Positions 14,456-36,704 of a stretch of 64,000 nt of DNA are shown here, in pieces. The stretch is from Escherichia coli (GTDB taxonomy: Bacteria; Pseudomonadota; Gammaproteobacteria; Enterobacterales; Enterobacteriaceae). The position numbers were made by a program, and so were the translations under genes. Location: assembly GCF_003334785.1 (NCBI RefSeq), contig NZ_QOWV01000014.1; one strand, written 5' to 3'. Numbering within the stretch: position 1 is the stretch's first letter; each line of letters begins with the position of its first letter. The notes under the pieces are model-generated. The model was not told where the DNA came from, did no database searches, and was given only the letters and a program-made list of their open reading frames with translations.

Positions 14456-15249
14456 TCATAATAATTGCGGCGGCGCAAAGCGACGGTTGTTTAAGACGGG
14501 CAGTTGCGCGCGCACCTGACGCACACGTTCGGGCGTCACTTCCGCCATAATGAGTGCAGGCATTTCTGACGCTGCCGCAATGGTGACGCCAAAGGGATCT
14601 ATAATCCGGCTTTGACCGATATTTTTGTTCCCGCACTCCCCCGCCGCCACCATATAACAGGTGGTATCCAGCGCACGAGCGGCAAGCAACGTTGACCAGT
14701 GATGCTCTTTGAGCGGCCCGCGAACCCAGGCGGCAGGAAGTACCAGGATTTCAGCTCCCTGTAATGCCTGTGCCAGCGCCAGCTCTGGAAAGCGTAAGTC
14801 ATAACAGGTCATCAGACCGACCTTCATCCCTTCCACCTCCAGTAACGGAGCGATTTCATTACCAGCATCAACACGGCGTGATTCCTGAATGGCAAATGCA
14901 TCATAGAGATGCAGTTTGGCATAACGGGCGACGATGTTTCCTGCCTGAAGTGCCACCAGCATATTCCATGCGCGCCCCGGCGTTGAAGGAACATGAATCG
15001 TCAGAATTGTCGTCATCATGTTACGTTTACTTTCTCGCCGTAAAGTCCGAGGAATTCGCCTTCCAGCAGCTGTGCTGATTTAACCGATAGATCTGCATCA
15101 TGATCATCGCGCGCCAGCAATGCTTCCGGCAGGACAAACAGCGATACGTCGTTTTCCGCCGCCTGCGCCATCAACGAGGCACAAATCTCAGCGTTCTTTT
15201 CCCACACAGATGTAACAGCAAACTGTCCTGCGGCAACCAGCATTGCCAC
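14456..15249 (-). pseudogene. ybeM: C-N hydrolase (nitrilase-family) gene interrupted by a frameshift
   Basis: Two adjacent minus-strand ORFs in different frames (15016..15249, 77 aa; 14456..15019, 187 aa) jointly encode one nitrilase-family protein; junction near 15016-15022. Confidence 0.8.
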
Positions 15250-15721: not shown

Positions 15722-15756
15722 ACCAAAAAAAACCCGCTGATTAAGCGGGTTTTGAA
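15722..15756. terminator. bidirectional rho-independent terminator between convergent crcB and cspE
   Basis: aaaaaaaacccgctgattaagcgggttttgaa. Confidence 0.8.
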
Positions 15757-15772
15757 TTCTTGCTGACGTATC

Positions 15773-15982
15773 TTACAGAGCGATTACGTTTGCAGCAGAA
15801 GGGCCTTTGGCACCGTTAGTGATTTCGAACTCTACGCGCTGACCTTCAGCAAGAGTTTTAAAACCATTAGTCTGGATTGCAGAGAAGTGTACGAACACGT
15901 CTTTGCTGCCGTCTTCCGGAGTAATGAAACCGAATCCTTTGGACTCATTAAACCACTTAACGTTACCTTTAATCTTAGACAT
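15773..15982 (-). CDS. cspE: cold-shock-domain protein CspE
   Basis: ORF 15773..16012; start at internal Met ([20 protein letters not shown]...) giving 69 aa. Confidence 0.95.
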
Positions 15983-16156
15983 CAAAATTACCTTTACATG
16001 AAAAATAGACACAAATGCTGTGTCGGTTACCAGTACACCAATTGTGGTACGCTTTGTCCAGTGTAACTTTACTAAAAAGTGATAAAAGTCGCGTTATTTT
16101 TGATGTTACTTATTTTAGCTATTGATTTTAAAGAAGTTACTAAAACTTCATTTGTC

Positions 16157-16717
16157 TCAAAACTGAAAGCGCATCCAGGCAAAGTACACATTGCCATTGT
16201 TGTAGGTACCCGGAATGTAGGTCATCTGAAAAGTCACTGGGCCATAACCCACGGAGGCCAATGGCAGTAGAACCGGGAGAGGGATGTAATTCCAGTTATC
16301 GCGTGCCGTTACGCCAGCGGTGAATCCCAGACCTAAATGAAAATTTTCATCCGCCAGCGGTCGCCAGGTACTTTCCCATCCGTATCCGGCAATCGGTTCC
16401 CATTTGTTCCACGAGTCCTTAAATGCCATGGCATACAGGCCATGCCAGTTTCCTTTTTCATCCCAACGCGACAGGCCAAAACCGCCACCCCACGGTCGCT
16501 CGTTATAGCGATCGGTTTTTTCTTTGTCGTAAGCGAAACGTGCATGCCAGGTGATGGCAGGAATATATAAATCATAATGTTCAGGCTGTTGCCAGGTTTG
16601 TGCAATATTTTCTCTAAACGTTGTCATCCACTCATCTGCGTTAGCAAAAACTTTACCAACGCTGATTAACTGAATAAAAACAAAGGAAAAGATAGCGACA
16701 TATTTACTCACGTTCAT
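16157..16717 (-). CDS. pagP: lipid A palmitoyltransferase PagP (CrcA)
   Basis: ORF 16157..16741; start at [12 protein letters not shown]... giving 186 aa outer-membrane enzyme. Confidence 0.92.
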
Positions 16718-17202
16718 TTGTGACCATAAAACATTTATCAAAAATCTACTACTAGCATAGCAAAGCTACAATTAACATAACCTTAATAGACCCAACATAA
16801 AGAATAATCTGAATAGCTGCTCTATTTATTTCCGCTTGTTCAAGTTAAATATTTCCGCGCATCGATTAAAGATGATGCGTCGTTTTCTGCGATGGGAATA
16901 GTCAAAAAAGAAAAACCAAGTCTTTTTTGATGACAAAATGCAATCAAGGAAAAATTATTTTATTTTTTAACGAGATACAACAATCATCTTAACGAAGTAT
17001 ATAATATATATCGTCAACCTATGCTCATATTAGATTATTTTTTGAGCGCACAGCCGCAGCTAACACCATTGCAATTAACAAATTTGCATCAATCCACCAT
17101 CAATTTGCACACATTATTATGTGATAATTGCCAACCGCTAAATATGCGTTTTGTTATCTATGTATAAAAACAGCAACTTCAATGTCTTAATGGCAGTTTT
17201 TA

Positions 17203-17216
17203 TTGATTTTAATCAG
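17203..17216. promoter_or_regulatory. FNR-like site upstream of dcuC
   Basis: ttgattttaatcag matches TTGAT-N4-ATCAA at 9 of 10 positions, about 90 nt upstream of the dcuC start codon. Confidence 0.45.
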
Positions 17217-17305
17217 CATTCATCGCCAATTTATTGGGCATATTTTTTCCTTAAGCTTTAGGAATTTTTTATTATTTACTTTGGGGCCTGGAGACAGGAA
17301 AAATT

Positions 17306-18691
17306 ATGCTGACATTCATTGAGCTCCTTATTGGGGTTGTGGTTATTGTGGGTGTAGCTCGCTACATCATTAAAGGGTATTCCGCCACTGGTGTGTTATT
17401 TGTCGGTGGCCTGTTATTGCTGATTATCAGTGCCATTATGGGGCACAAAGTGTTACCGTCCAGCCAGGCTTCAACAGGCTACAGCGCCACGGATATCGTT
17501 GAATACGTTAAAATATTACTAATGAGCCGCGGCGGCGACCTCGGCATGATGATTATGATGCTGTGTGGATTTGCCGCTTACATGACCCATATCGGCGCGA
17601 ATGATATGGTGGTCAAGCTGGCGTCAAAACCATTGCAGTATATTAACTCCCCTTACCTGCTGATGATTGCCGCCTATTTTGTCGCCTGTCTGATGTCTCT
17701 GGCCGTCTCTTCCGCAACCGGTCTGGGTGTTTTGCTGATGGCAACCCTATTTCCGGTGATGGTAAACGTTGGTATCAGTCGTGGCGCAGCTGCTGCCATT
17801 TGTGCCTCCCCGGCGGCGATTATTCTCGCACCGACTTCAGGGGATGTGGTGCTGGCGGCGCAAGCTTCCGAAATGTCGCTGATTGACTTCGCCTTCAAAA
17901 CGACGCTGCCTATCTCAATTGCTGCAATTATCGGCATGGCGATCGCCCACTTCTTCTGGCAACGTTATCTGGATAAAAAAGAGCACATCTCTCATGAAAT
18001 GTTAGATGTCAGTGAAATCACCACCACTGCTCCTGCGTTTTATGCCATTTTGCCGTTCACGCCGATCATCGGTGTACTGATTTTTGACGGTAAATGGGGT
18101 CCGCAATTACACATCATCACTATTCTGGTGATTTGTATGCTGATTGCCTCCATTCTGGAGTTCCTCCGCAGCTTTAATACCCAGAAAGTTTTCTCTGGTC
18201 TGGAAGTGGCTTATCGCGGGATGGCAGATGCGTTTGCTAACGTGGTGATGCTGCTGGTTGCCGCTGGGGTATTCGCTCAGGGGCTTAGCACCATCGGCTT
18301 TATTCAAAGTCTGATTTCTATCGCTACCTCGTTTGGTTCGGCGAGTATCATCCTGATGCTGGTATTGGTGATTCTGACAATGCTGGCGGCAGTCACGACC
18401 GGTTCAGGCAATGCGCCGTTTTATGCGTTTGTTGAGATGATCCCGAAACTGGCGCACTCTTCCGGCATTAACCCGGCGTATTTGACTATCCCGATGCTGC
18501 AGGCGTCAAACCTTGGCCGTACCCTTTCGCCCGTTTCTGGCGTAGTCGTTGCGGTTGCCGGGATGGCGAAGATCTCGCCGTTTGAAGTCGTAAAACGCAC
18601 CTCGGTACCGGTGCTTGTTGGTTTGGTGATTGTTATCGTTGCTACAGAGCTGATGGTGCCAGGAACGGCAGCAGCGGTCACAGGCAAGTAA
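17306..18691 (+). CDS. dcuC: anaerobic C4-dicarboxylate transporter DcuC
   Basis: 461-aa polytopic membrane ORF. Confidence 0.92.
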   Translation: MLTFIELLIGVVVIVGVARYIIKGYSATGVLFVGGLLLLIISAIMGHKVLPSSQASTGYSATDIVEYVKILLMSRGGDLGMMIMMLCGFAAYMTHIGANDMVVKLASKPLQYINSPYLLMIAAYFVACLMSLAVSSATGLGVLLMATLFPVMVNVGISRGAAAAICASPAAIILAPTSGDVVLAAQASEMSLIDFAFKTTLPISIAAIIGMAIAHFFWQRYLDKKEHISHEMLDVSEITTTAPAFYAILPFTPIIGVLIFDGKWGPQLHIITILVICMLIASILEFLRSFNTQKVFSGLEVAYRGMADAFANVVMLLVAAGVFAQGLSTIGFIQSLISIATSFGSASIILMLVLVILTMLAAVTTGSGNAPFYAFVEMIPKLAHSSGINPAYLTIPMLQASNLGRTLSPVSGVVVAVAGMAKISPFEVVKRTSVPVLVGLVIVIVATELMVPGTAAAVTGK

Positions 18692-35447: not shown

Positions 35448-35655
35448 AAGGTAATTCATGGATGGTTGAACTATATCCCTGCTTTTCAACCATCCTAAAA
35501 AAGCATGAATTGCTCGCTCTGCCCTAAGTGGCTGTGCTATTTTAGAAAAACTTAATCCTGAGTTAAGCAAAAAAACATAATCAATAAAAATATATACGCA
35601 AAAAACATTGATTAAGTGAATATATCATGGAAGAAAAATATAACCGGAGTAGTGT

Positions 35656-36558
35656 ATGGCCAATCTCTACGACTTGAAAAAGTTCGACTTAAATCTTCTT
35701 GTCATATTTGAGTGTATTTACCAGCATTTAAGCATTAGCAAAGCTGCTGAATCACTATATATCACCCCATCAGCCGTGAGCCAGTCGTTACAACGCTTAC
35801 GTGCGCAATTTAATGACCCTTTATTCATTCGCTCAGGAAAAGGTATCGCGCCGACGACAACAGGGTTAAATCTGCATCACCATCTTGAGAAAAATCTCAG
35901 AGGCCTTGAACAAACAATTAATATAGTCAATAAGTCCGAACTAAAGAAAAACTTTATTATCTACGGCCCTCAGCTCATTTCTTGCTCTAATAATAGTATG
36001 CTGATCCGCTGCCTACGGCAAGATTCCTCTGTCGAGATTGAGTGCCATGATATCCTCATGTCAGCAGAGAATGCTGAAGAACTGTTGGTTCACCGCAAAG
36101 CCGATCTGGTGATCACCCAAATGCCAGTGATCAGCCGTTCCGTCATTTGCATGCCATTGCATACGATTCGCAATACTCTAATTTGTAGTAATAGGCATCC
36201 ACGAATTACTGACAATAGCACTTATGAACAAATTATGGCAGAAGAGTTCACCCAATTAATATCTAAATCAGCAGGGGTTGATGATATTCAAATGGAAATA
36301 GACGAGAGATTTATGAATCGCAAAATCTCATTTCGTGGTTCCTCTTTGCTGACAATCATTAATAGCATTGCAGTTACAGATTTACTGGGAATAGTCCCCT
36401 ATGAACTTTATAATTTCTACCGTGACTTTCTTAACTTAAAAGAGATAAAACTAGAACATCCGTTACCTTCAATAAAGCTTTACATTTCCTATAATAAATC
36501 TTCTTTAAATAATTTGGTGTTCTCCCGATTTATTGACCGTCTAAATGAGAGTTTTTGA
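35656..36558 (+). CDS. ybdO: LysR-family transcriptional regulator YbdO
   Basis: 300-aa ORF with N-terminal HTH (TPSAVSQSLQRLR); alignable by eye with ybeF along its length; markedly AT-rich. Confidence 0.88.
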   Translation: MANLYDLKKFDLNLLVIFECIYQHLSISKAAESLYITPSAVSQSLQRLRAQFNDPLFIRSGKGIAPTTTGLNLHHHLEKNLRGLEQTINIVNKSELKKNFIIYGPQLISCSNNSMLIRCLRQDSSVEIECHDILMSAENAEELLVHRKADLVITQMPVISRSVICMPLHTIRNTLICSNRHPRITDNSTYEQIMAEEFTQLISKSAGVDDIQMEIDERFMNRKISFRGSSLLTIINSIAVTDLLGIVPYELYNFYRDFLNLKEIKLEHPLPSIKLYISYNKSSLNNLVFSRFIDRLNESF

Positions 36559-36704
36559 TATATAACTACAGACAGCTACTATAACTTTCATCTATTTATT
36601 CACAGCGCGAATGAAAAATAAAACACTCTGCTTTACAGTGTTTACTTTATAATTAACAGACTTATCTCACTGATCACCCTGTAACGTTCAGAGAGCGTCT
36701 TCAG

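Follow-up and report, generated by a model that had tools for sequence, protein, structure and literature searches.

The 588-bp gap between pagP and dcuC is, with a probability of roughly 85%, an ordinary divergent regulatory region whose regulation is already known. Published data document FNR occupancy, FNR-dependent expression, H-NS occupancy, repression of pagP by H-NS, and the presence of two sigma-70 peaks; control of the gap by FNR and nucleoid proteins has already been published. Across alleles and genera, the FNR box and the -10 element of dcuC are conserved, while neither an open reading frame nor an RNA structure in the gap is. The high variability of the central 190 bp constitutes a new observation, albeit a minor and unexplained one.

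The window (the whole stretch of 64,000 nucleotides that was analysed) belongs to the chromosome of Escherichia coli. It differs in 15 of its 64,000 bases from strain 300709 (NZ_CP025903.1, reverse complement) and is collinear over its 64 kb with MG1655, from leuS to entD; the identities of pagP and dcuC were taken from the RefSeq annotation of MG1655 and of the strain with 15 differing bases. The gap is bounded by the start codon of pagP, whose last position (minus strand) is 16717, and by the ATG of dcuC at 17306; this bears out the divergent control region described in the earlier note, together with its length and boundaries (Table 1). The description of the region as the longest non-coding stretch holds as well, in the sense that no other annotated intergenic gap of the window is as long (the runners-up have 378, 374, and 371 bp), as does its AT-richness: the GC content is 31.3% vs 51.8% for the whole window, and the AT run quoted as an example, attttattttttaacgagatacaacaatc, is located at 16957-16985. 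Inside the gap a single base, at 17202, distinguishes the window from K-12. Neither the MG1655 RefSeq record nor the PGAP-annotated genomes listed contain an annotated feature there, and of 5426 complete E. coli genomes, 5376 carry exactly one copy of the region. Within E. coli it consists of three zones: a conserved pagP-proximal part of 140 bp, a polymorphic centre (16860-17050), and a conserved dcuC-proximal part of 255 bp. In Citrobacter and Salmonella the whole gap is shorter, at approximately 400-520 bp, and in most Klebsiella and Raoultella it is down to approximately 290-310 bp.

Table 1. Coordinates of the features in and around the pagP–dcuC gap (positions of the window)
Feature	Position	Strand	Remarks
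pagP, lipid A palmitoyltransferase	16157..16717	-	flanking gene
pagP–dcuC intergenic region	16718..17305	.	588 bp, 31.3% GC, H-NS-covered
predicted pagP -10 hexamer TATGCT	16754..16759	-	aligns with Salmonella -10 TATTAT
PhoP-box region, pagP promoter	16783..16803	-	pattern match and Salmonella/Citrobacter promoter alignment
terminator-like hairpin with T tract	16857..16880	+	not conserved
hypervariable AT-rich spacer, central 190 bp	16860..17050	.	between two promoter-proximal zones
promoter-like ATGACA-17-AATTAT	16930..16958	+	inside variable spacer
upstream block ATTAACA-N6-CATCAAT	17074..17093	.	cross-genus conservation
FNR box TTGATTTTAATCAG	17203..17216	+	9/10 consensus bases; ChIP-seq-bound; conserved
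predicted dcuC -10 hexamer CATATT (CACATT in other genera)	17239..17244	+	within TTTATTnGGCACATT block
predicted dcuC 5' UTR, ~55 nt	17251..17305	+	start of UTR inferred
dcuC, anaerobic C4-dicarboxylate transporter	17306..18691	+	flanking gene

The FNR-like site that the earlier note had pointed out upstream of dcuC is genuine. A motif scan recovers TTGATTTTAATCAG, which matches 9 of the 10 specified bases of the consensus TTGAT-N4-ATCAA; a match with at most one mismatch also occurs in 13% of dinucleotide shuffles of the 588-bp gap, and the sequence match alone is weak evidence that does not reach significance. The site is considered real because it is conserved across genera and bound in published ChIP-seq experiments. 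After conversion of the U00096.2 coordinates (window position = 672497 minus coordinate, checked on two published motifs), the sequence CTGATTAAAATCAA, listed as bound at 655281 with a score of 12.38 bits (Myers 2013, Table S6), proves to be the reverse complement of 17203-17216. The site is entered as bound in Table S5 too; FNR ChIP peaks are located at 655298 and 655340, and the entry for the dcuC site carries the remark 'TSS not in peak region' (Myers 2013). In the same work dcuC is classified as FNR-activated (Table S8), and its aerobic/anaerobic expression ratio of 0.05 (Table S12) corresponds to approximately 20-fold anaerobic induction.

For the comparison across genera, pagP loci were fetched from 80 species, and 24 of them were chosen among those with dcuC located divergently upstream of pagP (genera compared: Escherichia, Citrobacter, Salmonella, Enterobacter, Lelliottia, Klebsiella, Raoultella, Kosakonia, Silvania, and Huaxiibacter). 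The TTGAT and TCA parts of the FNR box are essentially invariant in the 25 sequences from more than 10 genera, and the pattern TTGATTT..(A/G)TCAG hardly varies in neighbouring sequence that is otherwise unalignable. A second conserved block, TTTATTnGGCACATT, follows approximately 13 bp downstream of the box in every genus aligned. It contains a -10-like hexamer that begins 22 bp after the FNR box and is kept in every genus examined. If this hexamer is the -10 element of dcuC, transcription would start near 17251, which would place the centre of the FNR box at approximately -41.5. Conservation also extends to the GACAGG(A/G)(A/G)AA sequence preceding the dcuC ATG, where the Shine-Dalgarno AGGA is located (17296-17299), and, in Escherichia, Citrobacter, Enterobacter, Lelliottia, and Huaxiibacter, to the ATTAACA-N6-CATCAAT block further upstream.

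The conserved FNR box and -10-like element appear to fit a class II FNR promoter, a type with its box centred near -41.5 that also serves other E. coli genes of anaerobic respiration and transport. The likeness includes the 9/10 box, the distance of 22 bp to the -10-like hexamer, the predicted spacing of approximately -41.5, and the published FNR occupancy and FNR-dependent anaerobic induction at dcuC; the difference lies in the second half-site, which is ATCAG instead of ATCAA, with the G conserved across genera. FNR bound at 17203-17216, in the class II position if the start is indeed near 17251, would turn dcuC on in the absence of oxygen. The dcuC promoter was reportedly the subject of a study by Zientz in 1999. 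For ArcA, a binding site has been predicted upstream of dcuC/crcA, which ChIP by the same authors did not detect (Park 2013).

At the other end of the gap, the pagP promoter would consist of a predicted PhoP box upstream of a weak -10 hexamer, TATGCT, from which we infer a transcription start near 16747 and a 5' UTR of approximately 30 nt. In the pagP-proximal cross-genus alignment, the TAnnnT pattern of the -10 is present in nearly all other genera, and the GTTAAG motif of the PhoP box is conserved. A scan with the PhoP consensus, a direct repeat of the form (T/G)GTTTA-N5-(T/G)GTTTA, yields the match TCTTTATGTTGGGTCTA at 16803..16787 (10 of 12 bases, two mismatches) in a position homologous to the footprinted box of Salmonella, so that PhoP, one of the regulators for which the earlier note had suggested a motif scan, has a predicted site here. 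The Salmonella box lies 23 nt upstream of its -10 (Zwir 2012). Its exact positional homologue is 16799..16783 and the best consensus match is shifted 4 nt upstream; the register of the E. coli box is thus probably correct to within 4 nt.

The arrangement resembles the Salmonella pagP promoter, assigned to PhoP 'architecture IV' (Zwir 2012), in the GTTAAG-containing box and the -10 that are homologous in position, in the 23-nt spacing when the homology register is used, and in the short leader, which is predicted for E. coli too. It differs in the best consensus match, which lies 4 nt further upstream in E. coli, and in the second, upstream PhoP box of Salmonella, which was not identified in E. 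coli; the E. coli gap is also approximately 185 bp longer than that of the S. enterica subsp. arizonae genome compared. For EvgA, whose binding motif the earlier note had also proposed to look for, no convincing box is present in the gap. A cascade from EvgA to PhoP, together with an S1 mapping of the crcA promoter, is said to have been described by Eguchi in 2004. The missing EvgA box fits the indirect route by which pagP is reached, the EvgA > YdeO > GadE cascade (Yamanaka 2014). Induction of pagP in biofilm is PhoP-independent (Chalabaev 2014), and pagP mRNA is approximately 3.4-fold higher anaerobically (Myers 2013).

The suggestion that the region is bound by nucleoid proteins is supported by H-NS ChIP data. 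The H-NS ChIP-chip regions 654590-655558 and 655584-656283 (Myers 2013, Table S3) correspond to window positions 17907-16939 and 16913-16214, covering the whole gap and reaching into both genes; the dcuC/pagP spacer is also flagged HNS in the RpoD genomic SELEX map (Shimada 2014). A screen for derepression of pagP gave transposon hits in hns, and deletion of hns raised pagP-lacZ expression 18-fold, an effect complemented by plasmid-borne hns (Chalabaev 2014). SlyA counteracts H-NS and is needed for the induction of pagP in biofilm (Chalabaev 2014), and RcsB and GadE are also involved (Szczesny 2018). H-NS silences the pagP promoter, with SlyA, RcsB, and GadE implicated in the relief of this silencing by genetic studies. 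No excess over shuffled sequences was found in the gap for the 10-bp high-affinity H-NS motif, nor for the consensus sequences of SlyA, CRP, IHF, ArcA, and EvgA.

These properties are shared with H-NS-silenced and counter-silenced promoters (e.g., Salmonella pagC and ugtL, or the E. coli K5 capsule), which are likewise AT-rich and covered by H-NS in vivo. The derepression of pagP in hns mutants and the need for SlyA in biofilm recall the counter-silencing systems of the SlyA/PhoP type, as do insertion sequences that alter the expression context; recurrent IS5 insertions into the gap were observed during adaptation to kanamycin (Hoeksema 2018). Two differences are apparent: pagP belongs to the ancestral core genome of the family and is not horizontally acquired, and H-NS leaves FNR binding at the dcuC end unhindered, the FNR peaks being as high in the wild type as in the hns stpA mutant (Myers 2013, Table S7).

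Occupancy by sigma-70 points to one promoter at each end of the gap. Among the peaks listed, two anaerobic sigma-70 ChIP-seq peaks fall within the gap (Myers 2013, Table S1), at U00096.2 655235 (window position ~17262, dcuC side) and 655742 (~16755, pagP side), and neither is more than approximately 10 bp away from one of the predicted -10 elements or start sites. The pagP-side peak rises from 37 to 366 anaerobically (Myers 2013). The data represent listed peaks from anaerobic growth in one medium, have a resolution of tens of bases, and are blind to a promoter kept silent by H-NS in the wild type. The gap would therefore be served by two independent sigma-70 promoters, each near its own gene, with predicted starts approximately 500 bp apart. 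Between them, the promoter-like ATGACA-17-AATTAT comprises the same hexamers that were proposed for dcuC from genomic SELEX with RpoD in vitro (Shimada 2014). Most other E. coli alleles carry changes in both hexamers, and no sigma-70 peak at this site is among the anaerobic peaks listed (Myers 2013, Table S1). It is probably a spurious or silenced promoter; given the binding of the RpoD holoenzyme to the spacer in vitro, cryptic initiation there is possible. A sigma-54 promoter in the gap was considered and rejected, as a motif known from sigma-54 ChIP-seq and located within pagP (window positions 16643-16659) accounts for the RpoN genomic SELEX peak at 655760.

A long AT-rich gap could hide an additional gene, and the earlier note had raised both a small RNA and a small ORF; neither proposal is supported. 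An independent small RNA gene might take the form of Ssr31, a 295-nt sRNA predicted on the pagP strand of the pagP–dcuC gap of Shigella flexneri 301 (Wang 2016), or of a plus-strand RNA that starts at the promoter-like site at 16930-16958 or ends at the terminator-like hairpin (16857-16880). In its favour, Ssr31 was predicted from a promoter and a terminator and was positive in RT-PCR (Wang 2016), the spacer is bound in vitro by the RpoD holoenzyme, and three terminator-like matches are found in 16500-17500 against 0.6 expected, one of them inside the gap. However, support for Ssr31 consists of RT-PCR, with no Northern blot or RACE reported (Wang 2016), and an intergenic amplicon beside a promoter is weak evidence and no proof of a discrete sRNA. 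The terminator search gave no site on the pagP strand. The plus-strand candidates, both the promoter and the hairpin, are situated within the hypervariable segment or next to it, and other E. coli alleles carry disrupted versions of them: the stem of the hairpin is broken or refolded in O157, B2, and other alleles, and the hairpin is missing from E. whittamii and the E1V33 clade. A permissive Rfam scan returned for the gap matches at chance level (all with E of at least 2). The lowest folding z-score was -2.2 over 42 sliding 100-nt windows on both strands, which is not significant, and RNAalifold applied to eight alleles (16790-17100) yielded no compensatory substitution among 64 pairs, with a penalising covariation term of +1.3. 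Even against other Escherichia species the central segment is unalignable, and no third sigma-70 peak is among those listed. The Term-seq tables of Adams 2021 contain no entry for pagP or dcuC, a weak negative obtained under aerobic conditions. The resemblance to intergenic Hfq-type sRNA genes of enterobacteria is therefore one of setting only (a long gap, promoter- and terminator-like matches, the Ssr31 prediction), whereas conserved sequence, conserved structure, terminator, dedicated sigma-70 peak, and Rfam family are all missing from the gap, and an sRNA gene is considered very unlikely.

Even less probable, to the point of being hardly credible, is an unannotated small protein or type I toxin encoded in the gap. 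Following all frames of 15 or more codons across seven alleles of E. coli shows that several open frames of 15-48 codons do exist (e.g., 17021-17167, 17151-17261, and 16826-16936), but none of them is conserved as a plausible coding sequence. The only ATG-initiated frame of at least 20 codons, 17021-17167, is devoid of a Shine-Dalgarno sequence; in O157 its start codon is gone, and B2 strains carry a frameshift in it. Those frames that do persist have TTG starts, possess no ribosome-binding site, and lie within DNA that is conserved for the sake of the dcuC promoter. None of the seven peptides tested had a match in NCBIfam, and PGAP made no call here among the genomes listed.

Between the two promoter-proximal zones lies the hypervariable centre of the region. 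It differs by 6-19% between E. coli alleles, whereas the flanking genes are nearly identical; across 12 alleles, 64 of its 192 columns are polymorphic vs 51 of 602 outside. Measured against the 5,376 genomes, the identity of the centre to the allele of the window is at least 99% in 2,285, 95-99% in 994, 90-95% in 418, and 80-90% in 1,680, which means that approximately 31% of the genomes carry alleles diverged by 10-20%. An alignment of the centre with E. whittamii, Escherichia sp. E1V33, E. albertii, or the other genera is impossible. Two natural isolates carry IS1 insertions inside it. A mobile-element remnant is ruled out as the origin of the centre, which is single copy in essentially all genomes.

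The preferred account of the centre is an AT-rich, H-NS-coated spacer, in which the promoter- and terminator-like matches would be unconserved by-products and which may serve solely as an H-NS platform. Only its composition and approximate length seem to be constrained, and hence it drifts quickly. Still, its divergence from the window (17.3% in O157, 15.2% in a B2 strain) exceeds the average of 4-fold degenerate sites in 56 genes (5.1% and 9.5%, respectively), and plain neutral drift is not a full explanation. Lineage-specific selection on the regulation of pagP or dcuC, or a mutation or recombination hotspot linked to H-NS, might account for the excess. Such a cause would agree with the low divergence of 4-fold sites in the flanking genes of O157:H7 (1.3% in pagP, 1.1% in dcuC), with the high rank of the centre among all 150-nt windows of the 64 kb (second and fourth by divergence in the two comparisons), and with the behaviour of other non-coding DNA: most other long intergenic regions of the window are diverged by 0-3%, and the equally AT-rich dpiB–citC gap by 0.5-1.9%. 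It would also agree with the steady gap length of 586-588 bp across the fetched alleles, and with 10 columns that show at least three states and all four gametes in 143 of 1,081 site pairs. On the other hand, closely related allele pairs differ at 7 of 764 positions in the centre vs 9 of 2408 outside, and this excess of only approximately 2.5-fold argues against ongoing hypermutation. The GC content of the centre, 28-32.5% in all alleles, is what drift near mutational equilibrium predicts, and old allele classes combined with recombination that homogenises the flanks would fit equally well. The result for the closely related pairs points instead to allele classes of long standing in DNA under weak constraint, the flanks being kept alike by recombination or constraint, and selection or a hotspot acting on the centre is judged unlikely. 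A related idea, rather unlikely as well and speculative, is that these old, length-keeping allele classes (10-19% apart, about one third of the genomes) are maintained or diversified because they tune the action of H-NS on pagP, and perhaps on dcuC, differently from lineage to lineage; the centre would then be a polymorphic silencer and not junk spacer.

The reading of the gap as an ordinary divergent regulatory region re-identifies regulation of textbook level, namely FNR on dcuC and H-NS together with PhoP on pagP, and consequently changes little. Its value is that of a clean negative result: even where a genome has been studied so well, a long AT-rich gap does not have to conceal a gene, and matches to a consensus in AT-rich sequence deserve belief only if conservation or ChIP data support them. 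Two further candidates, a 12-nt direct repeat (AGGAAAAATTAT, at 16947 and 17296) and a 14-nt stretch (17238-17251) complementary to the dcuC ribosome-binding site, were dismissed as chance, since they are confined to E. coli or to individual alleles. If the alleles of the centre do alter the silencing of pagP, they would be one source of the differences between lineages in lipid A palmitoylation, a modification that influences inflammatory signalling as well as resistance to antimicrobial peptides. Taken together, the natural and the kanamycin-selected IS insertions suggest that the integrity of the gap affects fitness.

The centre of the pagP–dcuC gap (16860-17050) constitutes a hypervariable island within core intergenic DNA: divergence between E. 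coli alleles is 6-19% here, with GC content and length kept, and the flanking genes are near-identical (99.6% identity in pagP and 99.7% in dcuC for O157 vs the window). Alleles with 10-20% divergence from that of the window are carried by approximately 31% of 5,376 genomes. Natural IS1 insertions are found within the variable centre in two strains (see the table); one of them, MINF_8D, is also missing dcuC, dpiA, and dpiB, as far as citC. In laboratory evolution with kanamycin, IS5 was recurrently inserted in the same gap (Hoeksema et al. 2018).

Two other sharp divergence peaks are present in the window. One is a 150-nt patch in lptE (1301-1450), with 20.7% divergence vs O157; the other covers citR/ybdO and the dsbG–citR gap (35500-36650). 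The divergence of the citR region from a B2 strain (27-33%, and 50% at 4-fold sites) suggests replaced alleles.

On the pagP side, a near-consensus RcsB-box-like sequence, TAAGAATATTCC, is kept 5' of the PhoP box in Enterobacter and Lelliottia, and related versions occur in Citrobacter and Silvania. The loci with an RcsB-box-like sequence upstream of pagP are L035, L042, L031, and L060 (all fetched for comparison) together with Citrobacter, and the alignment places it at approximately 16810-16822 of the window. In E. coli the sequence is degenerate, despite the reported RcsB dependence of pagP. Under anaerobic conditions, sigma-70 occupancy at the pagP promoter (16755 in the window) increases about 10-fold, and pagP mRNA about 3.4-fold (Myers 2013). 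Yet pagP is absent from the list of FNR-dependent genes in that study; ArcA is a possible cause of its anaerobic induction.

On the dcuC side, the 14-nt segment 17238-17251 shows 93% complementarity to 17296-17309, which comprises the Shine-Dalgarno and AUG region of dcuC. The segment overlaps the predicted dcuC -10 element and start site; the pairing would be relevant only for transcripts that start further upstream, and there is no conservation of it in other genera. At 17202, directly 5' of the FNR box, the window strain carries an A, whereas K-12 and 11/11 other fetched E. coli loci carry a C.

The sigma-54 motif TTGGTAAAGTTTTTGCT lies within the coding sequence of pagP, at 60-75 bp from its start. 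This motif is the probable source of an RpoN peak in genomic SELEX data that had been attributed to the dcuC/pagP spacer.

Features within and around the pagP–dcuC gap (IS1 positions are window equivalents)
Feature	Position	Strand or orientation	Remarks
Sigma-54 motif in pagP	16643-16659	sense	ChIP-seq site IS06 (Bonocora 2015)
cspE and leader	15725-16167	minus	Rfam cspA thermoregulator RF01766, 124 bits (gathering threshold 78)
ybeM (deaminated glutathione amidase)	14456-15249	minus	frameshift-split gene in the window strain
IS1 insertion, strain MINF_8D (locus L011)	~16867		
IS1 insertion, strain 873.10 (locus L102)	~16957		

Among the neighbouring genes, ybeM is likewise frameshifted in K-12 and carries a pseudogene annotation there; the gene is intact in O157:H7 and ATCC 25922.
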